64,000 nucleotides of DNA from an uncultured Acetobacteraceae bacterium (GCA_964242335.1 CAXTAY010000003.1:105069-169068); one strand, 5' to 3'. Positions 246 to 24,048 are shown, counted from the stretch's first letter. Program-made: numbers and translations. Notes: a model not told the origin generated them from the letters alone.

Positions 246-1484
246 ATGAAAATCCTTTTCGCCTTCGAGAACGTCTTACCCAGTGACGAGGCGGACGCCG
301 AGGTCTTCGTAACGACCGCACGATATCTCGCGCCGCTGTCGTCGCGATCCTGGCTCCACGTGCCGCTGCCGGCCAGCACCGCTCCCGCCGCGGCCGCGGC
401 GCTGGCCGGCTTGCCGATCGTACGTGCCTATGCACCGGTGCGGCCCGCGGCATTGAGACATCTATGCTGCGGGCTGACCCTGGTCATGCGCGCGGAGTAC
501 TGGCAGGCCGACCTCGTCTATACGCGCAACCTCTGGGTCGCCTGGATGGCGATGCTGTTCGGAAAGCCCGTCGCGTTCGATCATTACCGCCCGTGGCCGG
601 ACCAGATCCCACCGCTCCAGCTCTGGATCTATCACCTCATCTGTAACAAGAGGTTTCTGATCAACATCTGTCACTCCGACTATACGAGAAAAAAATACCT
701 GAGCCTCGGCGTTCCGGAGAGCAAGCTGCGCTGCGTCCACAACGGATATGAGCCACAGCGTCTGGTAACGCCGCTCCCGGTGGAAGCCGCCAAGCGGGCG
801 ATCGGCGTGCTCGATGGAAGGAGAACGGTCGTCTATACCGGACGGCTCAATCACAAGAAGGGCCTCGCCCTGGTGATCGAGGCGGCGCGGCGACTACCGG
901 ATCTCGTGTTCATCCTGGTCGGCTCGTACGGCGAGGGCCCGATCGAGACGATGGCAAGCCCGGTCGCCAACGTCAGGATCGTCCGTTGGCAATCGCCGGA
1001 GATGTTGCCCCAGTACATCTTCGCGGCCGATGTCCTGCTGATCCCACCTTCCTGGAAGCCGCTCGCCGCGTTCGGCTCGACGGTGCTGCCGTTGAAGCTG
1101 TTCTTCTACATGGCCTCGGGCCGACCGATCCTCGCCGGCGCCACGCCCGACGTACGAGAGGTCCTGAGACATGACGAGAATGCCTTCCTCTGTATCCCGG
1201 ACTGTCCGGACTCGCTGGTCGACGGGATCACCGCGCTGACGCAGGACACGATGCGCGCGAAGCGGCTCGCCGCGACGGCGCTGTCGGAAAGTCGGGATTT
1301 CACCTGGCAGGCTCGGGCGCACAGGATCGTCGATATCCTCGCCGACCGGCTCCGCTCGGGGTCGTCGGAGCCCGGCCACTGGGGCGCCGTGCAGGGCCGC
1401 ACCTGGATGTGGCAGTCCTGGCGCTGGCTGGTGTATCTGATCCGCGCCAGATCCTGGGTTCTGCCCCCGGCTGAGGCCGACTAG
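246..1484 (+). CDS. Glycosyltransferase, family 4 (GT-B fold)
   Basis: ORF 234..1484. The ATG at 246 gives MKILFAFENV, a typical GT4 N-terminus. The C-terminal half looks like a GT-B donor-binding region (GRLNHKKG...LLIPPSW...KLFFYMASGRPILA). Confidence 0.8.
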   Translation: MKILFAFENVLPSDEADAEVFVTTARYLAPLSSRSWLHVPLPASTAPAAAAALAGLPIVRAYAPVRPAALRHLCCGLTLVMRAEYWQADLVYTRNLWVAWMAMLFGKPVAFDHYRPWPDQIPPLQLWIYHLICNKRFLINICHSDYTRKKYLSLGVPESKLRCVHNGYEPQRLVTPLPVEAAKRAIGVLDGRRTVVYTGRLNHKKGLALVIEAARRLPDLVFILVGSYGEGPIETMASPVANVRIVRWQSPEMLPQYIFAADVLLIPPSWKPLAAFGSTVLPLKLFFYMASGRPILAGATPDVREVLRHDENAFLCIPDCPDSLVDGITALTQDTMRAKRLAATALSESRDFTWQARAHRIVDILADRLRSGSSEPGHWGAVQGRTWMWQSWRWLVYLIRARSWVLPPAEAD

Positions 1485-1523
1485 GGCCGCAACCGGACGC
1501 ATATCCGTCGCGAGCGCCAGCGC

Positions 1524-2963
1524 ATGGACAGCTATCACCGACGTCTCGGCCGCGGCTTCAACTGGCTCGGTGGTGCTACGGTCATCGCCAAGGTCATCGA
1601 CTTCTCGACGATCCTGGTGATGCTGCTTTACCTGACCAAGCAGCAGGTCGGTGTCGCCTCGCTCGTCGTCTCGTTCGGCATGATCATCGAGGCGCTGAAC
1701 GGACTGGGTATCAGCGAGGCACTGATACAGGTCCGGTCGGTGACCCGACTGCAGCTCGACACGTTGTTCTGGTACGTCGTCGGGGCGGCCCTGACGGTGA
1801 GCACGCTCACCCTGCTCGCGGCGCCCTGGATCGAGGCGGCGTACGGCGTATCCGGGATGGCCCGGTATCTTCTCGTCATCGCGGTCAAGCAGCCCCTCGT
1901 CGGCGTCGCGTTGATCCCGCTGGCGATCATGAACAGGGAGCTGCAGTACGGACGCATCGCGACCGTCAACGTGTTCGCGACACTGGCCGCGGCGCTGACC
2001 CGGCTCGGCCTCGCGGCCGCCGGAGCAGGGGCGTGGGCGCTGGTCGTCGGATATTCGGCGAGCGGCCTCTACATACTGATCGGCGCGCTGCTGGCCCGCC
2101 CGTTTCGGCCGCGACTGCGCTGCCAGCTCTCGACCATACGGCCGCTGATCCGCTTCGGGACACGTGCCGTCGCGGCGAACCTGGGCGAGCAGATCTTCAA
2201 GAACATGGACTACCTGTTGATCGGGTGGTTCTACGGTCCGTCACAGCTGGCGGTGTATCGGGTCGCGTTCGATGTCGCCATGGAGCCGGCGATGGCGGTC
2301 GGCACGCTGGTCAGCCGCACGGCCCTGCCGGTGTTCGCGCGCCTCTCGGCGGTCAGGCAGCAGCTCGGGCAGATCTTCACCTGGTCGCTGCGCCGGATCG
2401 CGATCCTGGTCGCGCCGCTGATGGTGGGCCTGATGCTCGTCGCCGACCCGCTGACCGCCCTGCTTCACGACGATCGGGGCAACAGCTACGCCGCCGCGGC
2501 GGTGCCGCTCAAGCTGCTGGCCGCCGCCGCGTTGCTCCGGGTGACGGTGCAGCTCCTGTCGGCCGTCATGATGGGGACGGGGCGACCCGGCATCGCAGCC
2601 GGCCTCTCCTTGACGACGCTGCTGTCGTTGAGCCTGGGCATCCTGGTCGTCGGCTTCACGCTCCCGGCCCAGAGCGGCATCATCGCCGTCGCCGCGATCT
2701 GGTTGGGCATCTATCCGGTCCTGCTGCTCTGGGGATCGCGCTACCTGAGGGTGCATCTGAGCATCGCCGCCGCCGAACTCGCGCATGCCTTCAAGCTGCC
2801 CCTCGTCGGCATCGGCATCATGGTCACGGGCACGGAGGTGATCCGCCACCTGACCGCCGGCAGCGGTCCCAGGATCCAGATCGCCGTCGTCGTGCTGATG
2901 GTGACGCTGACCTATGCCGGCCTGTTCCTGCACGGCCGCCACCGACCCGAACCGGCACCGTGA
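1524..2963 (+). CDS. Polysaccharide/oligosaccharide flippase (MOP superfamily, Wzx-like)
   Basis: ORF 1524..2963, 479 aa. It is hydrophobic throughout with about 12-14 TM-like segments, and the N-terminus (FNWLGGATVIAKVIDFSTILVMLLYLTKQQVG) is typical of polysaccharide biosynthesis (Wzx/RfbX) proteins. Confidence 0.8.
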   Translation: MDSYHRRLGRGFNWLGGATVIAKVIDFSTILVMLLYLTKQQVGVASLVVSFGMIIEALNGLGISEALIQVRSVTRLQLDTLFWYVVGAALTVSTLTLLAAPWIEAAYGVSGMARYLLVIAVKQPLVGVALIPLAIMNRELQYGRIATVNVFATLAAALTRLGLAAAGAGAWALVVGYSASGLYILIGALLARPFRPRLRCQLSTIRPLIRFGTRAVAANLGEQIFKNMDYLLIGWFYGPSQLAVYRVAFDVAMEPAMAVGTLVSRTALPVFARLSAVRQQLGQIFTWSLRRIAILVAPLMVGLMLVADPLTALLHDDRGNSYAAAAVPLKLLAAAALLRVTVQLLSAVMMGTGRPGIAAGLSLTTLLSLSLGILVVGFTLPAQSGIIAVAAIWLGIYPVLLLWGSRYLRVHLSIAAAELAHAFKLPLVGIGIMVTGTEVIRHLTAGSGPRIQIAVVVLMVTLTYAGLFLHGRHRPEPAP

Positions 2964-2982
2964 TCGGCGGCGCAGATCGCGG

Positions 2983-3966
2983 TCAGTGCGCGCCGGCCTT
3001 GGACGGGACCTGACTGCCGCGATAGCGATCGAACATGCTCATCTGGTGCACGCAGCTCAACGTGCAGGTCGGGCTGCAGGACTTCTCGGCGTGAAACTCG
3101 CGGCGGATATCCTCGCGCGTGTAGTCGAGCAACGGAATGCCCGGATAGCCGCGCTGCTGGGAACACCAGTGAACCTTCCCGTCCTCGGCGACGTACAGGT
3201 AGCGCGCACCCGCACGACACTTCCAGTCGTTGGTCTGGCCGTGCATCAGGTTCTTCTGGAACAGCCAGTAGTTCAGGCTGTGCACGATAGACGGCGAGAT
3301 CTTGGTGACCTGCGTGTAGGCCCGCAGCTGCTCCGCACTGAGCGGCCGCAACATGCCGGTGTGATCATGCAGCACCCCGACGGAATGCTGCAGACCATAC
3401 TTGGCCGCGGTCCTCGCCACCGTCACGACGTCCTGGGTGCGCTCGTTGGTGACCCCGAGCACGGAATTCACGTTCACCTTGAAGTGCGCATGCTTCGACA
3501 GCAACTCGAGCTTGTTCTCCACCGAGGCCAGGCTCTTCATCGACACATCATCGGGCTTGAGGTTGTCGATGCTGATCTGCATGCCCTGGAGGCCCGCCGC
3601 GTTGAGCCGCTCGATCCAGTTCCGGGTCAGCCGGAAGCCGTTGGTGATCATGGTGACGATCATGCCATGGTCCCGGGCGGCCCGGATCGCCTGATCGAGG
3701 TCGGGATGAAGCAGCGGCTCTCCGCCGGTGAAGGTGATCGATGCGGTTCTCAGGCCTGCGAGGTGGTCCACCCAGGTGAGGAGGTCCTGCAGCGGCACCG
3801 GCGGCGAGACGCTGTCATACTCGTTGCAGTATCCACATGAGAGATTGCAGCGCCGCGTGACGACGACCTGAGCCAGCAGCGGGTTGTAGCGCGAGCCGAT
3901 CGCACGCGCCAGGAAGCGTGCCCCGGAGACGAGGTTTCCTTTCTGCGCGGAGGTGCTGCTACTCAT
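2983..3966 (-). CDS. Radical SAM protein with a Cys-rich (SPASM/twitch-like) C-terminus
   Basis: This is the C-terminal 327 aa of ORF 2983..4566, starting at the ATG at 3966 (MSSSTSAQKGN). It carries the CxxxCxxC motif VVTRRCNLSCGYCNEY and a GGEPLL SAM-binding motif. C-terminal cysteines are present (WKCRAG...HWCSQQ...KSCSPTCTLSCVH). The upstream 200 aa of the long ORF is Cys/Arg/Ser-rich shadow frame overlapping the next gene. Confidence 0.85.
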   Translation of the reverse strand: MSSSTSAQKGNLVSGARFLARAIGSRYNPLLAQVVVTRRCNLSCGYCNEYDSVSPPVPLQDLLTWVDHLAGLRTASITFTGGEPLLHPDLDQAIRAARDHGMIVTMITNGFRLTRNWIERLNAAGLQGMQISIDNLKPDDVSMKSLASVENKLELLSKHAHFKVNVNSVLGVTNERTQDVVTVARTAAKYGLQHSVGVLHDHTGMLRPLSAEQLRAYTQVTKISPSIVHSLNYWLFQKNLMHGQTNDWKCRAGARYLYVAEDGKVHWCSQQRGYPGIPLLDYTREDIRREFHAEKSCSPTCTLSCVHQMSMFDRYRGSQVPSKAGAH

Positions 3967-4117
3967 CGGTCGTGGATGCTCTGCGGAATGCGGGTGGCTC
4001 TGGTAGCATCTGCGGTGGCCGGAAGGAAGTTCCGCCGCCGACGCGGTCCTGGCCGGCGGTGCATCGGTGCGGCTCGAGCCTCCCGGCCGGATCACTCGGA
4101 CATCGCCGCGGCCGCCC

Positions 4118-5299
4118 TCAATCCCGTGCCTGGAGCTCACGAGGCCGGCATCGTGCACTTCCCCGTCTGCGGCTCGACAGCACGGCGTCGTAGAACGCTT
4201 CCAACTGCTCGCCCTGTCGGCGCAGGTCGAACTGCCGCTCGACGAAAGCCCGCGCCTGCACGCCCATGCGAAGCCGCGTTTCCGGCTGGTCGAGCAGATC
4301 GTTGATGCGCCCGGACAACGCGTCGACGTCACGTTCGGGCACCAGGAATCCAGTGTGGCCGTCGACGACGCCCTCGGGGATGCCGCCGACGCGCGAGGCC
4401 ACCACCGGCACCCCGGTGGCTGCGGCTTCGAGCAGCACCATGCCCAGGCCCTCGACCCTGCCCGTGATCGTGTGCACGCTGGGCAGCACCAGCATCGCGG
4501 CGCCGCGCATCCGGGCGACGACCTGCGCGTGCGGCAGCGCCCCGAGGAACTGCACGCGTGGCTCAAGCTGCAGCGTCTTCGTCAGCGCACGCAGCGAGCG
4601 GCGCAGCGGCCCGTCGCCGATGATGACCAGGTTGAAACCGGGATGCCGCCGTGCGACGGCCGCGAACGCGCGTATCAGATACTGGGTGCCCTTCATGTCC
4701 ACCAGTCGGGCGACGTGGAGCAGCGTCGGCGTCTCCTCGCTCGGATCACGTGGCTGGATCGCCCGGCAATCCACGCCGGTGTAGTGGACGCGGGTCAGTT
4801 CCGCGGGAAACCCCATTGCCAGGACCCGGCTGCGGATGAACGACGAGACGCAGAGGAACAGATCTCCCTCCCGGGCGAGGCGGCGCCGAAACAGCGGGTA
4901 ATTCGCCCAGGCCGGCGAACAGAGCAGGGCGGCGGTCGACAGCGTCGCGTCGAAGCCGTGGAACGTGGTGATCAGCGGCACGCCGAGCCTGCCGGCGAGC
5001 GGCAGCGCATAGACACCATCGACGCCGAAATGGGCATGGATGAGTGACGGCCGGTTCTCTCCCAGCAGCCGCTGATAGGGTCGGGCGGTTCGCGTGACCA
5101 TCTGCCAGCCGATGCGCGGCAGTGACCAGCGGGAGCCGAGATCCTGCAGCGCGAGCGACTGCGCTCCTGCCGGCGGGTCGCCGAAGCGCAGCCTTCCCAG
5201 ATAGAGCGGACGGTGGCGCCGCAGTTGCTGCGCCTGCTGCGTGATGAACGGCTCCGATATCCTGAAAAGGTTCTGACGGAAGATCGCAACCTGACGCAC
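4118..5299 (-). CDS. Glycosyltransferase, family 4 (GT-B fold)
   Basis: ORF 4118..5299, 393 aa, with GT4 hallmarks (HAHFGVDG...; VARLVDMKG...IIGDGPLR...VLPSV...EGLGMVLLEAAATGVPVVASRVGGIPE). Confidence 0.85.
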   Translation of the reverse strand: MRQVAIFRQNLFRISEPFITQQAQQLRRHRPLYLGRLRFGDPPAGAQSLALQDLGSRWSLPRIGWQMVTRTARPYQRLLGENRPSLIHAHFGVDGVYALPLAGRLGVPLITTFHGFDATLSTAALLCSPAWANYPLFRRRLAREGDLFLCVSSFIRSRVLAMGFPAELTRVHYTGVDCRAIQPRDPSEETPTLLHVARLVDMKGTQYLIRAFAAVARRHPGFNLVIIGDGPLRRSLRALTKTLQLEPRVQFLGALPHAQVVARMRGAAMLVLPSVHTITGRVEGLGMVLLEAAATGVPVVASRVGGIPEGVVDGHTGFLVPERDVDALSGRINDLLDQPETRLRMGVQARAFVERQFDLRRQGEQLEAFYDAVLSSRRRGSARCRPRELQARD

Positions 5300-5429
5300 G
5301 CGTGCTCTCTGTCCGCCGCAGCAAGCCGATCGGTCAATACCACGAGGACGATGATGTCAATGACCGACCGCTTCACCCGTCGGTCCGGCGGCGGCCGCAT
5401 CCGAGCCTGACGTCGCCGGGATCCCAGCC

Positions 5430-5446
5430 CGAAACCATTGGTTTCG
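5430..5446. promoter_or_regulatory. Candidate operator palindrome in a divergent promoter region
   Basis: CGAAACCA-T-TGGTTTCG has perfect 8-nt arms and lies in the 281-nt gap between divergent glycosyltransferase genes (5299 minus / 5581 plus). About one such palindrome is expected by chance in 64 kb, so this is weak. Confidence 0.2.
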
Positions 5447-5580
5447 CACGCTTTCGCTAAAGCAAACGGACCCGGGCGCGGTGTCGCCGCCGGTCGGACA
5501 GCGGCCCCGCGATTGGACTTCGAGGGTGCGCTCCTATAGCTTGCCCCTGCCGCATTGCACCGCCATCAGGCCGAAGCTCC

Positions 5581-6549
5581 ATGACGATACCTGCCCGACT
5601 GCATTTCTGCCTGATCGGGACGAGCCTACCCTGGGCCTACGTGTTCGCAGTGCTCTCCGCCGCCGAACGGAGCGGGCTTTCCGAAATCGTGCTTCATCAC
5701 ACGGATCTGATTGAGGATGGCGAAGCGTTGCGTGCGCTGAAAGGCGCACCTCGGGTGTGCCTGTCTCCCGTCGAACCCATGAGCTTCCTGACGCAGACGG
5801 GGCAGATGCTCGGGCTGGGCGACCGGCTGGCGCTGCTCTACCGCGGTCTGGCGAGTCCGGTGATCCGGTCCGATATCCTGCGGGTGGCGATATTGTACGC
5901 CCACGGGGGGATCTATCTCGATCTGGACACCGTGACCGTCGCCTCACTGCTTCCGCTGACCGGAGTGCCGCAGTTCGTCGGTTCCGAGTTCATCGTCTGG
6001 CCGCACTTCGTGCGGATCTCGCGATCGCCCACGTTATGGGCGCGTCATCTCGCCCTCGACCTGCTGCGCAAGGCGCTCCGCAAGATACCCCACGGCTGGC
6101 AGGCATTCAGGAAGATAGAGAGGCTCTACTCCCTGCACGTCAATAATGCGGCGATGGGAGCCGAGGCGAACTCGAGCCTGTTCTCGTCCTACCTGCACGC
6201 GATGCTGGACCTGTCGCCGGAACGTCAGATGCAGCGCTACGCCCTGGGGCCGAAGCTGCTTCAGGAGGTGGTCCAGCACCATCGGCCCGATGACCTGACC
6301 ATCCAGGAGCCGCAGGTATTCTACCCGCTGCCGCCGGAGATCTCCGAGCACTGGTTCCGACCGGTGCGCGTCGTGCGGCTGGACGAGGTGCTGTCGACGC
6401 AGACGCGCGTCGTGCATTGGTATGCGTCGGTTCGCACCAAGCCGCTGGTGGCCCAGATCAGCCCGGGATATGTGAGGCAGCATCGAGAACGGCAATTGTA
6501 CAGCGCGCTGGTATGTTCATGTATTGACGAGCTACCGGAAGCGGCATGA
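5581..6549 (+). CDS. Glycosyltransferase with DXD sugar-binding region (Och1/Sur1-like, Gly_transf_sug type)
   Basis: ORF 5581..6549. The motif SDILRVAILYAHGGIYLDLDTV matches the conserved block (sD.lRy..Ly..GGiYlDlD) of the DXD-containing mannosyltransferase family. Confidence 0.8.
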   Translation: MTIPARLHFCLIGTSLPWAYVFAVLSAAERSGLSEIVLHHTDLIEDGEALRALKGAPRVCLSPVEPMSFLTQTGQMLGLGDRLALLYRGLASPVIRSDILRVAILYAHGGIYLDLDTVTVASLLPLTGVPQFVGSEFIVWPHFVRISRSPTLWARHLALDLLRKALRKIPHGWQAFRKIERLYSLHVNNAAMGAEANSSLFSSYLHAMLDLSPERQMQRYALGPKLLQEVVQHHRPDDLTIQEPQVFYPLPPEISEHWFRPVRVVRLDEVLSTQTRVVHWYASVRTKPLVAQISPGYVRQHRERQLYSALVCSCIDELPEAA

Positions 6550-6592
6550 TCCGCGGCAGATGAATTCGATCAACGGAATAAGGTAAATAGAG

Positions 6593-7738
6593 ATGGTCAA
6601 AGGCAAGATCCGCATCGCGATCGTAGGTGTGGGGAACTGCGCGAGCGCGCTGATCCAGGGCATTCACTACTACACGCCCGAGCGCTGCCGCGAGGGCGTC
6701 GTGGGTTTGATGCACACCGAGATCGGCGGCTATCTGCCGTGCGACATCGAGGTGGTCGCGGCCTTCGACGTCGACGTCCGCAAGGTCGGCTCGGACCTCA
6801 GTCACGCCATCTTCTGCAAGCCGAACTGCACCCGCGTCTTCCAGCGCGACATCCCCAAGGCCGGCGTGACCGTCCGCATGGGGCAGGTGCTGGACGGCAT
6901 TTCCGAGCATATGGGCGACTACGCCGACGACCGCACGCTGATCCGCTCCGAGGCGAGGGAGCTCACCAAGGCGGAGATCGTCGACGAGCTCAGGCAGAGC
7001 GGTGCCGAGATCCTGTTGAACTACGTCCCGGTCGGATCGGAGGAAGCCGCGCGCTTCTACGCGGAGTGCGCGCTCGATGCGGACATCGCGTTCATCAACA
7101 ACATGCCGGTGTTCCTCGCCAGCAACGAGGCGGTCGCGGAGAAGTTCAGGGCACGCAACCTGCCGATCATCGGCGACGATATCAAGTCCCAGCTCGGCGC
7201 CACCATCGCGCACCGCGTGCTGACCGACCTGTTCGCCAAGCGCGGCGTCAAGCTGCTCAGGACCTACCAGCTCAATACCGGCGGCAACACCGACTTCCTC
7301 AACATGAAGAACCAGGAACGCCTGCTGTCGAAGAAGACATCGAAGACCGAGGCGGTGCAGTCGGTGGCCAAGAAGCGTATTGCCGACGACAACATCCATG
7401 TCGGGCCGAGCGACTACGTGCCGTGGCAGAACGACAACAAGGTCTGCTTCCTCAGGATGGAAGGGCATCTGTTCGGCGATACCCCGATGGAGCTGGAACT
7501 CAGGCTCTCGGTGGAAGACTCGCCGAATTCCGCCGGCGTGGTGATCGACATGATCCGGTGCTGCAAGCTGGCGCTGCAGAACGGCGTCGGGGGTGTGCTC
7601 GAGGGTCCCAGCGCCTATTTCTGCAAGCATCCGCCGAGGCAGTTCACCGACGACGAAGCATACAAGATGGTAGAGGCCTTCATACGCACGCACACCGCGG
7701 AGCTCTATCCGATGCTCGAGGTGCCTGCCACCCTATGA
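6593..7738 (+). CDS. ino1: myo-Inositol-1-phosphate (inositol-3-phosphate) synthase
   Basis: ORF 6593..7738, 381 aa, with a Rossmann N-terminus IAIVGVGNCASALIQG plus the NTGGNTDF and SKKTSKTE blocks typical of bacterial/archaeal MIPS. Its stop overlaps the next start (ATGA at 7735-7738). Confidence 0.92.
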   Translation: MVKGKIRIAIVGVGNCASALIQGIHYYTPERCREGVVGLMHTEIGGYLPCDIEVVAAFDVDVRKVGSDLSHAIFCKPNCTRVFQRDIPKAGVTVRMGQVLDGISEHMGDYADDRTLIRSEARELTKAEIVDELRQSGAEILLNYVPVGSEEAARFYAECALDADIAFINNMPVFLASNEAVAEKFRARNLPIIGDDIKSQLGATIAHRVLTDLFAKRGVKLLRTYQLNTGGNTDFLNMKNQERLLSKKTSKTEAVQSVAKKRIADDNIHVGPSDYVPWQNDNKVCFLRMEGHLFGDTPMELELRLSVEDSPNSAGVVIDMIRCCKLALQNGVGGVLEGPSAYFCKHPPRQFTDDEAYKMVEAFIRTHTAELYPMLEVPATL

Positions 7739-8451
7739 AATGCCTCATCGTCGCCGCCGGACAAGGTGCTCGGTTGCGAGAGAAGCTCGAGCTCAAACCG
7801 CTGATCCCGATCAAGGGCATCCCGCTCATCGAGCACGTGATCGATCGCGGCCGCCGGGCCGGCATCGATGAGTTCCTGGTCGTCAGCGGCTACCGGGGAG
7901 AGGAACTGCGCGAGGCGCTCGATGCGTTCTCCACCAGGGAAGGCGTTCCTGTCGGCCATATCATCAACGAGGAGTGGGACCGCTCCAACGGGGTCTCGGT
8001 GCTCAAGGGCAAGCCCTATCTCGACGCGCCCTTCCTGTTGATGATGTGCGATCACATCGTCGATCCGGAGCTGCTCCGCGGCGTGATGGCGGCTCCGATC
8101 GAGCCGGGCACCGTGATCCTGGCGGTCGATTTCAACATCCACAGCTCGATCAACGACCTGGAGGACGTCACGCGCGTGAGATGTTCCTCCAGCCGGATCG
8201 AGCATGTCGGCAAGCTGATCGCCGACTTCAACGGCTTCGACACGGGCGTGTTTCTCTGCACTCCGATCATCTTCGAGGCCCTGGAGCAGAGTCAGGCTGC
8301 CGGAGACGAAAGCATCTCCGGTGCCATGAACGTGCTCGCGCGGTGGGAGAGGGCGCACTTCCTCGACGTGCAGGACAAGCTCTGGATCGACGTCGACGAT
8401 GCGGTCGCCTTCGCCAAGGCCGAGAGGTTGCTCGAGCTGGGACGGCTGTGA
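7735..8451 (+). CDS. Nucleotidyltransferase (candidate CTP:inositol-1-phosphate cytidylyltransferase, IPCT-like)
   Basis: In-frame ATG at 7735 within ORF 6739..8451. The start MKCLIVAAGQGARLREKLELKPLIPIKG is the G-x-G-x-R-(L) NTP-transferase loop. The gene is 238 aa and has 4-nt overlaps with both neighbours. Confidence 0.85.
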   Translation: MKCLIVAAGQGARLREKLELKPLIPIKGIPLIEHVIDRGRRAGIDEFLVVSGYRGEELREALDAFSTREGVPVGHIINEEWDRSNGVSVLKGKPYLDAPFLLMMCDHIVDPELLRGVMAAPIEPGTVILAVDFNIHSSINDLEDVTRVRCSSSRIEHVGKLIADFNGFDTGVFLCTPIIFEALEQSQAAGDESISGAMNVLARWERAHFLDVQDKLWIDVDDAVAFAKAERLLELGRL

Positions 8452-9374
8452 CGCGCGGATCCGGGTCCGCGATCCGCGCGGCGGACGACGCCGAGACGGT
8501 CACGCAGCCGCAGAGCGCCGAGGCGGTCAGGCGGACGTTGGAGATAGAGGAGACCACCAACCGCTACTTCATCCATCCGGTCGCGAACCGGTTGGCACGG
8601 CTCTTCGCGCGCTTGCATGTCCGACCGAACAGCGTGTCCATCGCCGGCATGGCGTTCGGCGTATCCGCCGGCTTCGCCTATTACCACTACCGCGACGTGC
8701 GGTTCGCGATCGGCGGCTTTGCGCTCATGGTCGCCTGGCATGTCATGGATGGTGCCGACGGACAGCTCGCCCGTCTGACGCGGTCCCAGTCGCAATCGGG
8801 CAAGATCCTCGACGGCGTCTGTGACTACGTGACCTTCATCGCCGTCTACCTTGCCCTGGGCCTCGCGCTGAGTGCGCAGTACGGATACCGCGTATGGATC
8901 CTGATCGTGCTCTCCGGCGCCTGCCACGCGGTCCAGTCTGCCGTATACGAGGTGCAGCGGCAGGATTACGATTTCTGGGGCTGGGGGAAGCAATCGGCGC
9001 AGCTGTCGGAGCTTCGGGCGCCGCCGGCGCGGCAGCGGATCGCCGATCGGCTGCATCGGCTCTATGCGAGGGTTCAGCTCGTCGCGGCCGGCCTCGACAG
9101 CCGCTCCCGACGCAGCCTGACGGAGATCCTGGAACGTCAGCCGCAACGGGCGCCATCGATCCGTCGAACGTATCGCGAACGGTTCGCGCCGGCGACGCGA
9201 CACTGGTCGGTGATGTCGGCGAACTATCGTACGCTGGGGATATTCGTCGCCGCCCTGTTCGGTGTGCCGTTGTTCTATTTCTGCTTCGAGATCATCGGGC
9301 TGAGCGCGATCCTGATCGTCCTTCTGCGTCGGCAGCGCGATCGCTACGCGGCGTTCCTGAACGGGATCAGGTGA
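8448..9374 (+). CDS. CDP-alcohol phosphotransferase family membrane protein (DIPPS/PIP-synthase-like)
   Basis: GTG at 8448 (GTGA overlap) within ORF 7974..9374. It has the complete signature DGADGQLAR-x8-GKILDGVCD and multiple hydrophobic helices. Confidence 0.85.
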   Translation: MTRGSGSAIRAADDAETVTQPQSAEAVRRTLEIEETTNRYFIHPVANRLARLFARLHVRPNSVSIAGMAFGVSAGFAYYHYRDVRFAIGGFALMVAWHVMDGADGQLARLTRSQSQSGKILDGVCDYVTFIAVYLALGLALSAQYGYRVWILIVLSGACHAVQSAVYEVQRQDYDFWGWGKQSAQLSELRAPPARQRIADRLHRLYARVQLVAAGLDSRSRRSLTEILERQPQRAPSIRRTYRERFAPATRHWSVMSANYRTLGIFVAALFGVPLFYFCFEIIGLSAILIVLLRRQRDRYAAFLNGIR

Positions 9375-10465
9375 GCCAGGCCGGCCGAAGGCTTGCCGCG
9401 ATGCGCGTTGCGGAACAGGGCGATCGCCGCGACCATCACCAGGATCGAGGGCGTCAGCGCCGTGACCGCGGGGTTCACGTCGAGCAGCAGGCCCAGATGG
9501 CCGATGATCTGCTGGCCCAGCGAGAACACGATGCCGAAGCTCGCGCCGGCTGCGAGATAGGATCCGGCGTTCTGCGTCCGTGCCGATCCGAACACGAACG
9601 GTGCCACGATCATGATCATGGCGATCATCGAGAACGGAAGGCTGGCCTTGGCCCAGAGCTGCTGCTCGTACCGGATCGCCTTCTGGTGCCGGCGCTGCAG
9701 GGTGCGGATGTGCTGGTACAACGCGCTCGGCGGGATGCTCTCCAGGGGAAGCATCAGGAAGCGTATCTCCTGGATCGGCACGAAGCAGTGCCAGGACAGC
9801 GAGGCGAGATGCTCCGTCTTCAGCTGCGATGATTCGACGCGTCTTCTCGACACGTCCCTGAGCAGCCAGACCCCGTCGGGCCGAACATCGGCCTGCTCCG
9901 CATGGATGATGCTCTGCAGGCTCCCGTCCGCCTCGAAACTGTAGAGATCGATATCGATGGGCACCTGACCGCTGCGCAGTCGCTGCACGTTGAGATAGCG
10001 ACGGTCGCTCTGCGCCCAGAAACCGCTGTCGGCGTGGGAAGACGTCGAGGATGACAGGGCAACGGTACGCTGTTCCTGTGCCAGTCGCTGCGCCGGCGGG
10101 ATGACGAACTCCGCGGTCAGGAACAACGCCGTGACGATCGGAAAGATCAGCCTGAGCACCGACCCGACGATGCGGATCTCGGAGACGCCGAGACTCAGCA
10201 TCGCCGTGAGCTCGGAGTTCCTGGCCAGCGCACCGAGCGTAAGCAGGGAGCCCAGCAGCATGGAGACCGGCGTCACCTGCAGCAGCCGGGACGGCGCGGT
10301 CAGCAGCACGTAGAGGAGCGCATCCGTGACGTTGTACTGCCCCTGACCGACATAGGCGAGCTGCTCGACGAACTCCAGCAGGCTGAACAGCCCGGTCAGT
10401 GCCACCGCGACCCAGACGAAGGCCCGGAAGGCGGCGAACTCCACGTAGCGCCTAACCAGGATCAT
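9344..10465 (-). CDS. lptG: LPS export ABC transporter permease LptG
   Basis: ORF 9344..10465, 373 aa. The N-terminus MILVRRYVEFAAFRAF... and the YjgP/YjgQ permease topology fit LptG, and it lies directly downstream of lptF. Confidence 0.85.
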   Translation of the reverse strand: MILVRRYVEFAAFRAFVWVAVALTGLFSLLEFVEQLAYVGQGQYNVTDALLYVLLTAPSRLLQVTPVSMLLGSLLTLGALARNSELTAMLSLGVSEIRIVGSVLRLIFPIVTALFLTAEFVIPPAQRLAQEQRTVALSSSTSSHADSGFWAQSDRRYLNVQRLRSGQVPIDIDLYSFEADGSLQSIIHAEQADVRPDGVWLLRDVSRRRVESSQLKTEHLASLSWHCFVPIQEIRFLMLPLESIPPSALYQHIRTLQRRHQKAIRYEQQLWAKASLPFSMIAMIMIVAPFVFGSARTQNAGSYLAAGASFGIVFSLGQQIIGHLGLLLDVNPAVTALTPSILVMVAAIALFRNAHRGKPSAGLAHLIPFRNAA

Positions 10466-10474
10466 GGCGATCCG

Positions 10475-11704
10475 TCATGTACGCCCACGCCTGAGTGCCA
10501 GTCTCGGTCCATAGGTGGTGGAGAGCAGAAGCAAGGCGAGCAGCCCCGGAGCCCACCAGATACCCGGAAACCGCGGCATCATGCCGTGCTGCACCCAGGT
10601 TCGGGCCGAGGTGCAGAGCAGGTAATAGCCGAAATACACGATGAGCGCGGTGCCGAACCGCGCGTATCTGCCTTGCCGCGGCCTGGTGCGGCTCAGCGGT
10701 ATGCCCAGCATGCCGAGCAGCAGCGTCGACAGCGGCGTCGACAGCCGCCATTGCAGCTCGGCGGTATCTTCAGCGGAACCGGAAGCGGCGAGGTGCGCGC
10801 TGCTCGCGGCGACGGCGCTGTATCCGAGGGGTTCGCGGTCTCGGCCTTCCGGAAACACCGTCAGTCCGTTCGCATGCACCGCCTGATCGGGCTGGGCCCT
10901 GTCGCGGTCTATCTCGTAGATGTAGGCGTCGCTCATATAGACTTCCGGATCGCTGTCCGGCGCGGTCTGCGCGAGCTTGTAGGCGCGCTGGGCATGGATG
11001 ATCTCGGTGCGGTCGCTGTGCCGGAGCTTGACGAAGACGTCGCGCGCCGGGGCGCCGGGCCCGTCACGATGCGCCAGGAAGATCACCCGGGTGCCGTCGC
11101 GCCCGACATAGAAGGAGTTCGCCTCCATCGCGTTGACGTCGAGCAGGGTGCCGGCCTGGCTCGAGAGCTCGTGCAGTCTCTCGTACGCCCAGGGTCTGAC
11201 GATCAGCGACAGGGCGGCGACCACGAGGGCCAGGTAGCCCGACAGGGTCAGCACCGCCCGCATCATCGTCGCCGGCGTCAGGCGCAGGGCGAACATCGCC
11301 GCGAACTCGGACTCGCTGTACAACCTCGCGAACGACAGCATGACCGAGATATAGAGCGAGGCCGGTATCAGCACCTCGAGCGAGATCAGGACCTTCAGGC
11401 CGACCAGTTCCGCGATCGCACTGGCCGGCAGCAGCCCGTCGACCGCGTCGGACAGGAAGCCGCTGGCGCTGTAGCTGGCGAACAGCGCGAGCAGGATGCC
11501 GAGGATGATCGCGAGCGGCTTGCTCAGCTCACGCACCAGGTAGCGGTTGATGATCAAGACCGACGGCCGCCGATCCGCGCCCAGGCGGGGACGGTGCCCG
11601 CGGCGCCGCCGGAGGGCATGATCCTCGCGCTCGAAGAGGCTGTAGCCAAGCTCCGACAGGGCATTCGTGAGTGGTCCCGGCAGTCGTGGGTCCGGATCTA
11701 GCAC
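10475..11704 (-). CDS. lptF: LPS export ABC transporter permease LptF
   Basis: ORF 10475..11704. The conserved start region LIINRYLVRELSKPL is typical of LptF. The true start may be the TTG at 11557, because the 49-aa N-terminal extension from the ATG at 11704 is atypical. Confidence 0.8.
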   Translation of the reverse strand: MLDPDPRLPGPLTNALSELGYSLFEREDHALRRRRGHRPRLGADRRPSVLIINRYLVRELSKPLAIILGILLALFASYSASGFLSDAVDGLLPASAIAELVGLKVLISLEVLIPASLYISVMLSFARLYSESEFAAMFALRLTPATMMRAVLTLSGYLALVVAALSLIVRPWAYERLHELSSQAGTLLDVNAMEANSFYVGRDGTRVIFLAHRDGPGAPARDVFVKLRHSDRTEIIHAQRAYKLAQTAPDSDPEVYMSDAYIYEIDRDRAQPDQAVHANGLTVFPEGRDREPLGYSAVAASSAHLAASGSAEDTAELQWRLSTPLSTLLLGMLGIPLSRTRPRQGRYARFGTALIVYFGYYLLCTSARTWVQHGMMPRFPGIWWAPGLLALLLLSTTYGPRLALRRGRT

Positions 11705-14897: not shown

Positions 14898-15182
14898 CGT
14901 CCCTCGCAATCAGGTAACCGCACTGTCGAAATAGCTGATGCACGACTAGATACTAAATCGCAACGGCTTAACCATTCGTTTCTGAAGTATTAACGAGCGA
15001 TCTAAGGCTGTGATTTGTTATTGCAGTGGCGTCGTTTCTCTGCGACCGGCGCTTGCCGCTCGCCCGGCGGCACCGGCCCGGCCTCCCTGCGGTCGCGTCG
15101 GCCGAAGACCATTCTCAACCGCTGGCACACAACCTATAGATCGACCTCCAACGGTCAGCTGCCATTCCTGGACAGGTGCGCG

Positions 15183-16052
15183 ATGCTGCGGACGATCTGG
15201 GCGCTCCTCGAGGACAGCGTCAAAGGCTATATCGAGGACGATGCGCTGTCGCGCGGGGCAGCGATCGCCTACTACACGATCTTCTCGATCGCTCCGATGC
15301 TCGTCATCATCATCGCCATCGTCGGCCTGATCTACGGCCCGCAGGCGGCGCACGGCGCGATCAAGGGAGAGCTGCAGGGCATGATGGGTGCCGATGGCGC
15401 CTACGCGATCCAGACCATGATCGCCTCGGCCAGCAACAGGCACAGCGGCATCGTGGCCACCCTGCTCGGCATCGGCACGCTGCTGGTCACCGCCAGCGGC
15501 GTGTTCGGCGAGATGCAGATCGCCCTCAACGTGATCTGGAACGTCCGGGCGCGCGGCAGATCCTCCACCGTGTCTCGCCTGGTCCGGGCGCGGGCGATCA
15601 GCCTCGGGCTGGTCGCGGCACTCGGCTTCATGCTGGTGATCTCGCTCGCCGTCAGCACCGCCGTCGCCGCCCTCGGCTTCGCGCTGCAGCACAGGCTTCC
15701 CGGCATCGACCTGCTGATCCAGCTGCTGAACTTCCTGGTCTCGTTCGCGATGATCACGGTGCTGTTCGCGGCGATCTACAAGGTGCTGCCCGACCAGTCG
15801 ATCGAGTGGTACGACGTCTGGGTCGGCGCGCTGACCACTGCGCTGCTGTTCACGATCGGCAAGACCGCGATCGGGCTCTATATCGGCAGCAGCCAGGTCG
15901 CGTCCTCCTACGGCGCCGCGGGCGCCCTGGTCATCGTGCTGCTCTGGATCTACTACTCGGCACAGATCTTCCTGTTCGGCGCCGAGTTCACCAAGGCCTT
16001 CGCCAGGCGCCACGGCAGCCATTCCAAGGCCGGCGCGCGAGCGGCCCCGTGA
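15183..16052 (+). CDS. YihY/BrkB family membrane protein
   Basis: ATG at 15183 (MLRTIWALLEDSVKGYIEDDALSRGAAIAYYTIFSIAP) carries the canonical YihY N-terminal block. The rest is multi-TM. Confidence 0.85.
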   Translation: MLRTIWALLEDSVKGYIEDDALSRGAAIAYYTIFSIAPMLVIIIAIVGLIYGPQAAHGAIKGELQGMMGADGAYAIQTMIASASNRHSGIVATLLGIGTLLVTASGVFGEMQIALNVIWNVRARGRSSTVSRLVRARAISLGLVAALGFMLVISLAVSTAVAALGFALQHRLPGIDLLIQLLNFLVSFAMITVLFAAIYKVLPDQSIEWYDVWVGALTTALLFTIGKTAIGLYIGSSQVASSYGAAGALVIVLLWIYYSAQIFLFGAEFTKAFARRHGSHSKAGARAAP

Positions 16053-16080
16053 TCGCCTCGCCCCGGGTCAGGAGCACAGC

Positions 16081-16518
16081 TTGTCCGACGCCTTCGACCT
16101 CGACCGCTTCGTCGCCGCCCAGGAGCCGGTGCTGGCTCAGGTCCAGGCGGAGCTGGAACAGGGACGCAAGCGCAGCCACTGGATGTGGTTCGTCTTCCCG
16201 CAGCTGAGCGGCCTCGGCCACAGCGCGACCGCCCGGTACTACGCGATCGCCTCCAGGCAGGAGGCCGAGGCCTACCTGGCGCACCCGCTGCTGGGGCCGC
16301 GGCTGATCGCCTGCAGCGAGCAGGTCAACCGCATCGAGGGTCGCTCGGTGCAGCAGATCTTCGGCAGCCCGGACGACCTCAAGTTCCGCTCCTCGATGAC
16401 GCTGTTCGCGGCGGTGCGGCCGGAGGCAGCGGCGTTCCGCGGCGCACTGCTCCGTTACTTCGACGGGGTGCCCGACGCGGCGACTCTCGAGAGGCTCGGC
16501 GAGTGCTGGCCGGGGTGA
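16081..16518 (+). CDS. DUF1810 family protein
   Basis: ORF 16081..16518 with a TTG start. The blocks LDRFVAAQ...Y..V..EL..G.K.SHWMWFVFPQL.GLG.S and DDLKFRSSMTLF are characteristic of DUF1810. Confidence 0.8.
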   Translation: MSDAFDLDRFVAAQEPVLAQVQAELEQGRKRSHWMWFVFPQLSGLGHSATARYYAIASRQEAEAYLAHPLLGPRLIACSEQVNRIEGRSVQQIFGSPDDLKFRSSMTLFAAVRPEAAAFRGALLRYFDGVPDAATLERLGECWPG

Positions 16519-18325: not shown

Positions 18326-19279
18326 TCATCTTCCGTCCGGATCGAGCGGGCGGTCTGCCGTGCCCGACCGGTCGTGCAGCCGATCCGCCGGCTGGAACAC
18401 GCCCATGATCTCCTGATCCGGACGCGGCGCCAGTCCCGCCCGATCCGCCGGCTCGCCCGCCCGGCCGGGAAGGTAGCCGGTGATCCTGTGTCGCGCCCGC
18501 GCGAGATGATCGAGCCAGCCCGTCCGCGCGAGCCGCGGCGACACCGCGCGGGCCGCGTAGTAGCTGCGCGCCAGGGCGTCGTACCGGTCGGTGTCGAACG
18601 GCAGGTACTCGATCACCCCGTCCGGCTGGCTCTCCGGCAGGTACATCCTCTCGAAGAAGCGGCCATAGCCGTAGCGCACCCTGTCGTAGCCGCGCAGCTT
18701 CTCCCGGCGCTGGGCATGGCTGCGGATCACCCACTCGAAATGCACGAAGTAGGCATCGGCCGGCATCCGCGACCAGGCACCGACGAGGAAGCCGTCGGTG
18801 TGCATCACCGGGATGAAGCGCACCCTGTCTGGGCGGAACAGCCGCCAGGCATGGTCGGTCCCGGGCCGCCCGGTGCGGTCCGGCCAGTGCTGCGAACGAC
18901 CATATCGCAGCGGCTCGCCGGGGACGTGCCAGGCCCAGCGGCGCGGGATCGCGACCGACTCGACCTGCGGCGGCGGCTCGGAGCCGCGCAGCCGGTCGAA
19001 CAACGCGTCGGAGGGGATCTCGTCGTCGTGCAGGAACAGCGACCACGGCGTCGCGACGCAGCGCCGCGTGAGGGCGACGGCCGCCTCGGTGCAGGAGAAG
19101 CCCTCCAGCGCCACGACCGGCGAACCGGCCCGTCTCACGATCGCGGCCGTCGAGTCGCGGCTGCGGGAGTCGAGCAGCACCGTGGCGATGAAGCCGTGAC
19201 GACGATAATGCTCCAGGACGCCGCCGATCCAGGCTGAGCTGTCCCTGGTGGGGATGACGACGGTGACCCATGACGTCAT
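18326..19279 (-). CDS. Glycosyltransferase family 2-like protein
   Basis: ATG at 19279 (MTSWVTVVIPTRDSS) within ORF 18326..19354. It has a GT-A N-terminal beta-strand motif and an acidic DDE motif (FLHDDEIP). Confidence 0.7.
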   Translation of the reverse strand: MTSWVTVVIPTRDSSAWIGGVLEHYRRHGFIATVLLDSRSRDSTAAIVRRAGSPVVALEGFSCTEAAVALTRRCVATPWSLFLHDDEIPSDALFDRLRGSEPPPQVESVAIPRRWAWHVPGEPLRYGRSQHWPDRTGRPGTDHAWRLFRPDRVRFIPVMHTDGFLVGAWSRMPADAYFVHFEWVIRSHAQRREKLRGYDRVRYGYGRFFERMYLPESQPDGVIEYLPFDTDRYDALARSYYAARAVSPRLARTGWLDHLARARHRITGYLPGRAGEPADRAGLAPRPDQEIMGVFQPADRLHDRSGTADRPLDPDGR

Positions 19280-19371
19280 GGCCTGTCCAGATGCGTCGCG
19301 ATGATCGTTGGCCGCGATCCTGCCATAGCCGCGCCGCCGCGACAGCCGCCCCACCCCCTATCATTCCGATG

Positions 19372-20241
19372 TCAGTCCCGGCGACACCAGCCGGGCAGGG
19401 CGCCGCCGAGCTGCGCCGTGATCGCGTCGGCCCTCCGCCGCACCCGGTCGCCGAGCAGCGGGATGCGCTCGTCGGAGATGCGCGCCATCGGCCCGGAGAC
19501 GGAGACCGCCGCCACTGCGGCCGCGTTCTCGTTGAAGATGACGGCGGCGATGCAGCGCAAGCCGACGGCGTTCTCCTCGTCGTCGATGGCGTAGCCGCGC
19601 TCGCGTGTCCGGATCAGGTCCTCGCGCAGCGCCGACGTCGTGGTGATCGTCTTGACCGTGACCCGCGGCAGGCCGCGGCGATGCAGGATGCGGGAGAGCT
19701 CGCTGTCCGGCAGCGCCGAGAGCAGCGCCTTGCCGACGCTGGAGCAGTGCAGCGGCACCCTTGCACCGGGACGGGCGAAGGCGCGCATCATCTGCCGGCA
19801 CTCGACCTGCGACAGGTAGATCGCCTCGAACTGGTCCTCGACCGCCAGGTTCACGGTCTCCTCGCTCTCCTCCATCAGCGCGCGCATCTGCGGGCGCGCG
19901 CTGGCCACCAGGCTGCGCGTCTTGAGGAAGGCGTTGCCGGCGACGAAGGCCTGCACGCCCACCGACCACAGCCGCCGCTCGGCATCGAAATGCACGTAGC
20001 GCTCCTGCTCCAGCGTCGTCAGCAGCCGGTGCGCGGTGGAGGGCGACAGCCCGACCTGCTGCGCCACCTCGGTCAGCGTGATGCCCTCGTCGGCGGCCGC
20101 GAGCCGGTTCACGATGGTCAGCGCGCGCACCAGCGACTGCACCTGGTCGGAGCGCTCGACGGCGACGCGGGAGACCGGTTCGCGCCGCGCCGGCGCGACA
20201 CCGGCCGGTTTCGTCGTCCGCGCGATGCCTGCTGTCCGCAC
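19372..20241 (-). CDS. IclR family transcriptional regulator
   Basis: ORF 19372..20241. An HTH ([24 protein letters not shown]) is followed by an IclR effector domain. It is divergent from gcl. Confidence 0.85.
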
Positions 20242-20458: not shown

Positions 20459-22285
<1,827 letters not shown>

Positions 22286-22321
22286 CGCCGCCACGCCATC
22301 GCCGCCGCACCGGAGAGCCAG

Positions 22322-23128: not shown

Positions 23129-23145
23129 ACCGGAGGGTCCGGCAC

Positions 23146-24045: not shown

Positions 24046-24048
24046 GCG

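Follow-up and report, generated by a model that had tools for sequence, protein, structure and literature searches.

What is made by a block of glycosyltransferase, flippase and radical S-adenosylmethionine (radical-SAM) genes that stands immediately next to genes for inositol phosphate synthesis? The question arises from a stretch of DNA from an uncultured Acetobacteraceae bacterium (GCA_964242335.1 CAXTAY010000003.1:105069-169068), which is called the window here and is 64,000 nt long. An assembly line had been predicted at 246-6549, comprising two family 4 glycosyltransferases (GT4a and GT4b), a Wzx-like flippase of the MOP superfamily, a radical-SAM enzyme and a DXD glycosyltransferase of the Gly_transf_sug family (DXD-GT); its product was thought to resemble the phosphatidylinositol mannosides (PIMs) or the glycosylinositol phosphoceramides (GIPCs). 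Profile searches with Pfam and NCBIfam models recovered each of the five genes at its predicted position and in its predicted family (Table 1), and the 43-nt gap described between DXD-GT and ino1 was found as stated, with the DXD-GT stop at 6549 and the ino1 start at 6593 on the same strand. To these genes we add the inositol trio, consisting of ino1, a putative inositol-1-phosphate cytidylyltransferase (IPCT) and a CDP-alcohol phosphotransferase (CDPOH), and a neighboring pair of LptF/LptG-family permease genes. We propose, with a probability of about 0.6, that 246-11704 is one unit for making a glycosylated inositol-phosphate lipid and delivering it to the outer membrane; its anchor would most likely be ceramide and the product thus GIPC-like. 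The proposal starts from four sets of observations: the family assignments, the intact catalytic motifs, the overlapping reading frames and the conserved co-localization of the genes.

Linkage between the two groups of genes was examined from both sides. One genome per GTDB species was scanned with the DXD-GT, which gave 80 loci (54-89% identity), 55 of them at least 15 kb long. JGI metagenome contigs were scanned with a CDPOH profile, and this yielded 80 further loci, 30 of which were at least 11 kb long. Genes were counted at each locus by tblastn with proteins of the window or representative proteins, and genes within 10 kb were considered linked. Starting from the DXD-GT, IPCT and CDPOH were found within this distance at 50 of the 55 genome loci; starting from CDPOH, the GT4, Wzx, radical-SAM and DXD genes recurred in the 30 metagenome loci. 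Other counts in the genome loci were 46 for an LptG-like gene, which adjoins the trio, 43 for GT4b, 42 for ino1, 31 for Wzx and 23 each for the radical-SAM gene and GT4a. The corresponding metagenome counts were IPCT 27, LptF/LptG 25, ino1 22, Wzx 18, GT4b 17, DXD-GT 15, PIG-L (described below) 14, GT4a 12 and radical SAM 10. Since the linkage holds from both sides, the idea that the block acts with the inositol genes on a PIM- or GIPC-like glycolipid is supported by the genomic evidence.

The 80 genome loci are mostly from Acetobacteraceae (Lichenicoccus, Lichenicola, Acidocella, Gluconacetobacter), with others from Aliidongia, Rhizomicrobium and several gammaproteobacterial metagenome-assembled genomes (MAGs). 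Those with the nearest DXD-GT (86-89%) belong to lichen-type Acetobacteraceae/Lichenicoccus MAGs, and a bacterium of this type is the probable source of the window. The exact gene order of the window is kept in 14 Acetobacteraceae loci, and the same genes are rearranged in other lineages. Across related loci, identity is 78-94% for the radical-SAM enzyme, 75-94% for Ino1, 60-89% for GT4b and 54-89% for the DXD-GT. Protein identity of 55-93% over several orders is unlike that of hypervariable O-antigen loci. One full copy of the cluster lies on a contig labelled as a Geothrix (Acidobacteriota) MAG (L061, JARLGO010000222.1), yet the proteins that it encodes share 59-82% identity with their alphaproteobacterial counterparts; either the contig was mis-binned or the cluster was transferred recently.

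Five of the 55 genome loci lack the trio, and four of these are from Gluconacetobacter. In G. azotocaptans a single locus holds Ino1-IPCT-CDPOH-LptG-LptF-rSAM-GT4, where rSAM is the radical-SAM gene, and three isolate runs of one study contain contigs that are collinear with the ino1, CDPOH, LptG and LptF genes of the window. One of these runs (X9) holds the trio-less locus L076 complete, with its ino1..CDPOH..LptG..LptF block on a different contig; ino1-CDPOH-LptG-LptF is found on one 20-kb contig in X9 and in X13. At least in part, the Gluconacetobacter loci without the trio are not true exceptions. In G. azotocaptans (L082/L083), the rSAM-GT4 pair is followed at 15079-16182 by genes for a TonB-dependent receptor and a glycerophosphodiester phosphodiesterase (GDPD), which may be linked to turnover or uptake of a phospho-head group.

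The trio predicts how inositol would enter the product. Ino1 matches PF01658 with 121 bits and TIGR03450 with 423 bits, which is under the equivalog cut-off of 638. The NTP transferase (PF12804, 54 bits) has as its top NCBIfam match the cytidylyltransferase (N-terminal) half of NF041135, archaeal IPCT/DIPPS, with 101 bits, and its top PDB matches are the Archaeoglobus fulgidus IPCT 2xme (2.7e-14) and IPCT/DIPPS 4mnd. It is therefore most similar to characterized inositol-1-phosphate cytidylyltransferases, and this substrate specificity is predicted for it. CDPOH matches PF01066 with 44.2 bits (cut-off 22), and its top PDB match is the AF2299 IPCT/DIPPS protein 4o6m (1.2e-6). The CDPOH motif DGxDGxxAR...GxxxDxxxD is intact, with D77, G78, D80, G81, A84, R85, G94, D98 and D102 invariant among 15 homologs. 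IPCT and CDPOH are separate proteins. From this pair, inositol is predicted to enter as CDP-inositol and not, as in the PimA pathway, via CDP-diacylglycerol. We propose that CDPOH is an inositol-phosphate transferase acting on a lipid; it is the genomic context only that favors ceramide as its acceptor. The frames of ino1 and IPCT overlap at ATGA and those of IPCT and CDPOH at GTGA, a layout typical of co-translated operon genes, with GTG 8448 as the probable start codon of CDPOH.

The context for ceramide is seen in relatives of the window. ORFs of the related loci were clustered into families using gene calls based on G+C content at third codon positions (GC3; 3' half of each ORF), and some families were mis-joined in this process, an AMP-binding gene, for example, being grouped with GT4b. 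The families associated with the cluster include a serine palmitoyltransferase (spt; NF047599, 661 bits, cut-off 500), a GNAT protein of 378 aa of the bacterial ceramide-synthase type (bCerS-like), a CerR-like NAD-dependent reductase of the short-chain dehydrogenase/reductase family, a fatty-acid hydroxylase and a PIG-L-family N-acetylglucosaminyl (GlcNAc)-phosphatidylinositol de-N-acetylase (28.3 bits, gathering score 28.2). Of the 55 genome loci, 31 contain at least one member of the spt, bCerS-like or CerR-like families, and 16 of the 30 metagenome loci contain an spt or bCerS-like gene. A near-complete version of the cluster, on an Aliidongia-type contig (L094), has 15 cluster families within 21 kb in the order hydroxylase, bCerS, CerR, DXD, Ino1, IPCT, CDPOH, LptG, LptF, Spt, GT4b, PIG-L, rSAM, Wzx, GT4a. 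Because these ceramide genes are part of the cluster in many relatives, a ceramide anchor is likelier than diacylglycerol. The Caulobacter-type combination of spt, bcerS and cerR in one cluster is thus present in the cluster family and absent from the copy in the window.

PIG-L is present in 26 of the 80 genome loci, usually next to or directly after GT4b, and in many relatives (L047, L089, L094, L105) it lies between the radical-SAM gene and GT4b. At this position the window and its nearest clade have a mere 151-nt gap (3967-4117). PIG-L appears to have been lost or moved in the window clade, and ceramide genes, if the clade has any, would be located elsewhere. Without PIG-L the head group of this clade may keep its N-acetyl group or have a different first sugar. 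In the public run X1, where the window has a depth of 17.4, contigs at depth 17-18 carry Spt-like and bCerS-like segments; they are only suggestive, since Spt-like and DXD-GT-like segments also occur in this run on contigs at about 315x, which points to a second, more abundant carrier of a related cluster in the sample. Four runs filed under different organism labels hold 78-100% of the sampled words of the window, which suggests that the window bacterium is associated with a host or lichen.

Three glycosyltransferases are available to build on an inositol head group. Both GT4 proteins have the N- and C-terminal domains of their family, with scores above the Pfam gathering scores (GT4a, PF00534 62.4 bits and PF13439 34.3 bits; GT4b, PF00534 143.8 bits and PF13439 64.7 bits), and can be placed in CAZy family GT4 (GT-B, retaining). 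GT4a is the more divergent of the two. Its top NCBIfam match, the WcaI family, is far under the cut-off at 70 bits, and its PDB matches, Alr3699 and MshA, are weak; it is present in 28 of the 80 genome loci at 58-84% identity, each time directly upstream of Wzx. The top PDB matches of GT4b are PimB' 3okc (2e-26, the alignment spanning residues 141-368 only), BshA 2jjm (6.5e-25) and MshA 3c4q (8.9e-25). GT4b reaches none of the equivalog cut-offs, including those for characterized GT4 enzymes with inositol acceptors, the MshA model TIGR03449 scoring 105 bits against a cut-off of 462.5. GT4b thus seems closest to those GT4 enzymes whose acceptors are inositol or small molecules, by resemblance and not by equivalence; its linkage to ino1 and PIG-L lends indirect support to an inositol ring as its putative acceptor. 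Its pairing with PIG-L in relatives is the pattern of PIG-A/PIG-L in glycosylphosphatidylinositol (GPI) synthesis, and also of MshA/MshB and BshA/BshB.

The DXD-GT matches PF04488 with 36.5 bits (cut-off 23), and its D114-x-D116 motif is invariant among 20 homologs. Its AlphaFold model (pLDDT 85.5) has as top fold matches YeGT, PaTox, SetA, TcdA, glycogenin and Och1 (9n3s), with merely 9-17% identity to solved GT32 and GT-A structures, and sequence profile searches of the PDB gave weak matches to SetA (0.008) and Och1 (0.039). From the model and the motif, the protein is assigned to GT32/Gly_transf_sug, with a predicted retaining GT-A fold. It is predicted to be soluble or peripheral, and no signal peptide was found in it, so that it should act in the cytoplasm, ahead of flipping. 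A search with this protein found 1067 homologs; the listed matches of at least 63% identity are from Acetobacteraceae, Aliidongia, Bradyrhizobium and Steroidobacteraceae.

The radical-SAM enzyme matches PF04055 with 74 bits and has an invariant CX3CX2C motif at C40/C44/C47, by which it can be assigned to the superfamily. In its C-terminal region C250, C268, C297, C301 and C305 are invariant in 24 homologs. This Cys-rich region appears to resemble a SPASM/twitch domain; it has no SPASM match in Pfam and its model has a pLDDT below 50, and the fold matches are to SPASM/twitch enzymes. The best 120 homologs listed are 79-94% identical, and none carries a functional name. BlsE and GDGT-MAS are the top PDB matches by sequence; by fold, the top matches are BlsE, PqqE, SkfB, DesII, anSME and viperin, with TM scores of about 0.5, and MoaA is a further enzyme that it resembles. 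The model would therefore place the enzyme only among the SPASM/twitch and the nucleotide- or sugar-acting enzymes. Identification as HpnH/HpnJ, MoaA, viperin or PqqE was rejected, as the NCBIfam matches are far under their cut-offs and cover the core only.

Transport functions are predicted for the flippase and for the LptF/LptG pair. The flippase matches PF13440 with 189.5 bits and PF01943 with 82.9 bits, and NF007773 with 148 bits, under the cut-off of 273. It has about 10 hydrophobic segments by Kyte-Doolittle hydropathy, in line with the 10-14 or so transmembrane helices of MOP/Wzx flippases, and from this and its domains the product of 1524-2963 is assigned to that group. The LptG-like and LptF-like proteins match PF03739 with 228 and 174 bits, respectively. 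Identity of the LptF-like protein between Alpha- and Gammaproteobacteria is 48-58%, which overlaps the 51-67% range between alphaproteobacterial lineages, and this fits a pair moving as part of the cluster. The usual neighbor of lptF/lptG is pepA; here the flanking genes are different. These features hint indirectly that the pair may be a component of the cluster and not the housekeeping pair. We refine the earlier idea by treating it as a putative part of the gene unit.

A pathway can be drawn from these assignments, in which all substrates, the order of the steps, the ceramide anchor in the present organism and the transport roles are inferred. Ino1 would convert glucose-6-phosphate to inositol-1-phosphate, from which the IPCT-like enzyme, with CTP, would make CDP-inositol. 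CDPOH would then transfer inositol-phosphate from CDP-inositol to the 1-OH of ceramide, releasing CMP and giving inositol-phosphoceramide (IPC), a Kennedy-type reaction unlike the fungal Aur1 or Bacteroides BT_1522 routes. At the cytoplasmic face, the PimB'/MshA-like GT4b, the GT32-type DXD-GT and GT4a would extend the inositol head group with sugars. Where relatives have PIG-L beside GT4b, the first sugar would probably be GlcNAc, de-acetylated to glucosamine (GlcN) as in GPI and mycothiol synthesis. The SPASM/twitch-like radical-SAM enzyme would modify the head group, and the Wzx-like MOP protein would flip the finished lipid. LptF/LptG, with an LptB ATPase encoded elsewhere, would extract the lipid and hand it over to the Lpt bridge for passage to the outer membrane. 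In its most specific form the proposal is tentative: Acetobacteraceae, Aliidongia, Rhizomicrobium and some Gammaproteobacteria might form a widespread group, living in acid soil, peat and lichens, that makes a GPI/GIPC-like (GlcN/GlcNAc, hexose)-inositol-phosphate-ceramide, with a CDPOH unrelated to Aur1, remodeling by a very highly conserved and hitherto uncharacterized radical-SAM enzyme, and a dedicated Wzx and LptF2/LptG2 route.

Several points weigh against the proposed synthesis and export of a GIPC-like lipid. No spt, bCerS-like, CerR-like, hydroxylase, PIG-L or GT-C gene was found in the 64-kb window by tblastn (E<=1e-3); for this reason the ceramide anchor in the present organism rests on the relatives and on the depth-matched contigs of run X1. 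Five metagenome loci (L103, L117, L120, L125, L127) have trio genes, most of them together with LptF/LptG, and no glycosyltransferase genes within 10 kb. The CDP-alcohol phosphotransferases nearest to DIPPS are able to use soluble acceptors. To our knowledge, MOP/Wzx flippases are known for polyprenyl-diphosphate-linked glycans and not for sphingolipids or phosphatidylinositol (PI). The model of the radical-SAM enzyme is weak (pLDDT 62.7) and of low confidence, and the chemistry of its step is not assignable. Finally, the literature searched, which lies outside most subscription journals, contains no report of inositol lipids in Acetobacteraceae, nor does it describe the present proteobacterial cluster or any inositol glycosphingolipid from these bacteria.

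The alternative that retains most of this scheme is the same assembly line with a diacylglycerol anchor in the present organism, in which CDP-inositol and diacylglycerol would give PI and then, through the GT4 enzymes and the GT32 enzyme, a PIM-like glycolipid. The lack of ceramide genes in the window and the similarity of GT4b to PimB' speak for it, and a conversion of CDP-inositol and diacylglycerol to PI has been proposed for a Bacteroidetes cluster of MIPS, NTP transferase and CDP-alcohol phosphatidyltransferase genes (Heaver et al., PMC9246714). We consider it unlikely, given that ceramide genes are interleaved with the cluster in about half of the related loci, that Spt-like and bCerS-like contigs of matching depth are found in the source run X1, and that no gene specific to diacylglycerol or PI travels with the cluster.

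The LptF/LptG genes bear on a second alternative, that the CDP-inositol of the trio is used to attach inositol-phosphate to a polyprenyl-linked oligosaccharide or to the core or lipid A of lipopolysaccharide (LPS); the glycosyltransferases would build this glycan, Wzx would flip it and the ordinary LptFG would export the LPS. An inositol-phosphate-substituted oligosaccharide had also been allowed for in the original prediction, the trio is nearly always beside LptF/LptG, and polyprenyl-diphosphate-linked glycans are the normal cargo of Wzx. This is quite an unlikely reading: it leaves the link to ceramide genes unexplained, no initiating phosphoglycosyltransferase, WaaL or Wzy is present in the conserved set, and LptFG moves with the cluster into Gammaproteobacteria, where it is 48-58% identical.

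The lack of polymer genes and the strong conservation also speak against the idea that the block is an ordinary exopolysaccharide or O-antigen locus with unrelated inositol genes as chance neighbors. Such loci typically contain GT4, Wzx and GT-A genes, and the top NCBIfam matches (WcaI, WcaL, EpsE, TuaB) point in this direction, all far under their cut-offs. Against this, the genes, although rearranged, stay linked in Acetobacteraceae, Aliidongia, Rhizomicrobium and gammaproteobacterial MAGs, the identity of their proteins is very high, and initiating transferase, polymerase, chain-length and ligase genes were absent from the scans made. The statement that the window has no Wzy or WaaL gene stood up in a Pfam scan of its approximately 45 larger ORFs, a scan that was not exhaustive. 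Likewise, no initiating phosphoglycosyltransferase, Wzy, chain-length regulator or WaaL was found among the conserved families of the 160 related loci or the window ORFs scanned, a negative kept from being airtight by an unassigned 529-aa polytopic protein (f23) that is encoded just outside the window in close relatives. With high protein identity and no initiating transferase, Wzy or WaaL travelling along, the earlier preference for a short glycolipid head group over a polymer is supported, and an ordinary polysaccharide locus is very unlikely.

Protein f23 has no Pfam match and accompanies the cluster in the window clade and the Lichenicola clade (L001:2749-4350, L002:2820-, L048:17896-19485); its gene would sit upstream of window position 1. 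In its place other lineages have a GT-C protein with weak PMT_2/GT87 similarity (e.g. L017:3407-4984). f23 could act on the lipid once it is flipped, either as a periplasmic glycosyltransferase or in the manner of a ligase.

The remaining alternative is a soluble product. This would be either di-myo-inositol phosphate, from IPCT together with a DIPPS-like enzyme, or a GlcN-inositol thiol akin to mycothiol, from MshA- and MshB-like enzymes. The nearest solved relatives of IPCT and CDPOH are indeed archaeal IPCT/DIPPS enzymes, and GT4b, PIG-L and ino1 resemble MshA, MshB and Ino1. The alternative is nevertheless most improbable: genes of the MshC or MshD type are lacking, the organisms, which are from acid soil, peat and lichens, have IPCT and CDPOH as separate proteins, and solute synthesis would need neither a flippase nor LptFG nor ceramide genes.

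Among described systems, the closest to the present cluster appears to be the sphingolipid region of Caulobacter crescentus. The region CC_1168-CC_1152 contains spt, cerS and cerR with a putative PF01943 flippase, CC_1166, second copies of LptF/LptG (CC_1156, CC_1155), LptC and a MobA-like NTP transferase; a role in carrying phosphosphingolipids to the outer membrane was proposed for these genes, without a test, and the same authors noted that the cluster had been transferred to Gammaproteobacteria (Olea-Ozuna et al., PLoS Pathog 2024, PMC11324152). The present flippase belongs to the same family as CC_1166 (IPR002797/PF01943). In both clusters such a flippase is accompanied by an LptF/LptG pair (PF03739) and by a MobA-like NTP transferase for head-group activation, both have ceramide genes (in the present case in relatives of the window), and for both spread to Gammaproteobacteria is proposed. 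In Caulobacter, by contrast, a ceramide kinase and phosphoglycerate transferases produce a phosphoglycerate head group (CPG/CPG2), while the present cluster has ino1, IPCT, CDPOH, two GT4 genes, GT32, the radical-SAM gene and often PIG-L. Also unlike Caulobacter, no LptC2 was seen in the present cluster, and ceramide genes are not adjacent in the window.

The 'alternative' cluster of Bacteroides vulgatus and Prevotella has MIPS, NTP transferase and CDP-alcohol phosphatidyltransferase genes side by side; inositol lipid synthesis is predicted for it, so far unconfirmed, with a HAD hydrolase proposed to convert PI to IPC (Heaver et al., Nat Microbiol 2022, PMC9246714). It shares with the present cluster the adjacency of these three genes, a predicted CDP-inositol route and the context of a sphingolipid producer, but it lacks GT4, GT32, radical-SAM, Wzx and LptFG genes. 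No HAD-type family is found among the annotated conserved neighbor families of the present cluster.

Parallels to eukaryotic GIPC/mannosyl-IPC and GPI synthesis lie in the GT32 DXD transferase (Sur1/Csg1), in GT4 (PIG-A) followed by PIG-L (in relatives) and in the same predicted order of action on an inositol-phosphate lipid. Eukaryotes differ in making IPC from PI via Aur1 and not from CDP-inositol, and their GT32 enzymes are lumenal membrane proteins, whereas the DXD-GT is predicted to be a 322-aa cytoplasmic protein. The mycobacterial PIM pathway (PgsA1, PimA, PimB', PimE) likewise combines ino1 with GT4 enzymes acting on an inositol lipid; PimB' is the nearest solved relative of GT4b, and the GT-C protein of some relatives has weak GT87/PimE-like similarity. 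It differs in using CDP-diacylglycerol and inositol-phosphate, in its diacylglycerol anchor and in having no Wzx, LptFG or radical-SAM gene. The order GT4b, PIG-L, rSAM in relatives also recalls the logic of HpnI/HpnK/HpnJ in hopanoid synthesis, in which GlcNAc is added to a lipid, de-acetylated and remodeled by a radical-SAM enzyme. The families are different: HpnI is a GT2 enzyme, HpnK is YdjC-like and HpnJ is a B12-binding radical-SAM enzyme, and no Hpn model is among the NCBIfam matches listed for the window proteins. GIPCs, like GPI-type GlcN-inositol cores, are regarded as characteristic of plants, fungi and protists, and bacterial inositol sphingolipids are known mainly from Bacteroidetes, with simple head groups. 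The present cluster is probably of a known kind, a bacterial cluster for synthesis and export of complex sphingolipids; what would be new is a head-group chemistry not described in bacteria.

Coordinates of the cluster genes are given in Table 1. GT4b and the radical-SAM gene are read leftward, and DXD-GT, ino1, IPCT and CDPOH rightward, from a common intergenic region that, from the orientation of the genes, is presumed to be a shared promoter region for both sets. A sigma-70 consensus scan of this region (5300-5580) found no site, and such a scan is uninformative for the present organism; in a scan for promoters and terminators, sites were no commoner than in shuffled sequence. None of the RNA runs contains the region. 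The LptG-like gene is convergent with CDPOH and overlaps it by 31 nt.

Table 1. Genes and intergenic region of the cluster, with positions counted from the first nucleotide of the window
Feature	Position	Strand	Product and profile matches
GT4a	246..1484	+	412 aa; PF00534, PF13692, PF13439
Wzx-like MOP-superfamily flippase	1524..2963	+	479 aa; PF13440, PF01943
Radical-SAM enzyme	2983..3966	-	327 aa; PF04055
GT4b	4118..5299	-	393 aa; PF00534
Divergent intergenic region	5300..5580	none	281 nt; between GT4b-rSAM and DXD-ino1-IPCT-CDPOH
GT32-type (Gly_transf_sug) DXD glycosyltransferase	5581..6549	+	322 aa; PF04488
ino1, myo-inositol-1-phosphate synthase	6593..7738	+	PF01658
IPCT-like NTP transferase	7735..8451	+	238 aa; PF12804
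CDP-alcohol phosphotransferase (CDPOH)	8448..9374	+	308 aa from GTG; PF01066
LptG-like, LptF/LptG-family permease	9344..10465	-	Downstream gene of pair; PF03739
LptF-like, LptF/LptG-family permease	10475..11704	-	Upstream gene of pair; PF03739

Past 11.7 kb the window encodes unrelated metabolism, including a FadD-like ligase, a gcl-hyi-glycerate pathway, a nonribosomal peptide synthetase (NRPS)-like protein, a GT2 enzyme, a TonB receptor and cyoAB. A glyoxylate-to-glycerate pathway cluster at 19372-25317 consists of an IclR/BhcR-type regulator (19372-20241, minus strand), glyoxylate carboligase (inside 20036-22285), hydroxypyruvate isomerase (22322-23128), a domain of the 3-hydroxyisobutyrate/tartronate-semialdehyde-reductase type that forms the C-terminal part of a long ORF ending at 24045, and glycerate 2-kinase (24049-25317); a 1591-aa ORF at 19270-24045 is a high-GC artefact covering several genes. 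An NRPS-like single-module protein (31443-34736, plus strand), with a partial C domain followed by A, T and TE, is convergent with a membrane GT2 glycosyltransferase (34761-36278, minus strand), and 31443-36278 could be a small locus for a lipo-amino acid or glycolipid. An 896-aa ORF at 38465-41155 has a good codon-position GC bias (GC3 0.81) and no Pfam match at E<=1e-5.

If the proposal of a glycosylated inositol-phosphate lipid on a ceramide anchor is correct, a new class of bacterial outer-membrane lipid would be expected, together with a new enzymatic way to make IPC and a radical-SAM reaction that acts on the head group of a lipid. In its most specific form, the proposal would mean that inositol-glycosphingolipids were invented independently in bacteria, and that the Lpt machine has a second natural cargo. 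The cluster would make transport of sphingolipids to the outer membrane directly testable, as cultured carriers exist (Acidocella aromatica, Lichenicoccus roseus, Aliidongia dinghuensis and Gluconacetobacter species). Carriers occur commonly in acidic soils, peat and lichens, so that a role in acid tolerance and use as a biomarker are conceivable for the lipid.

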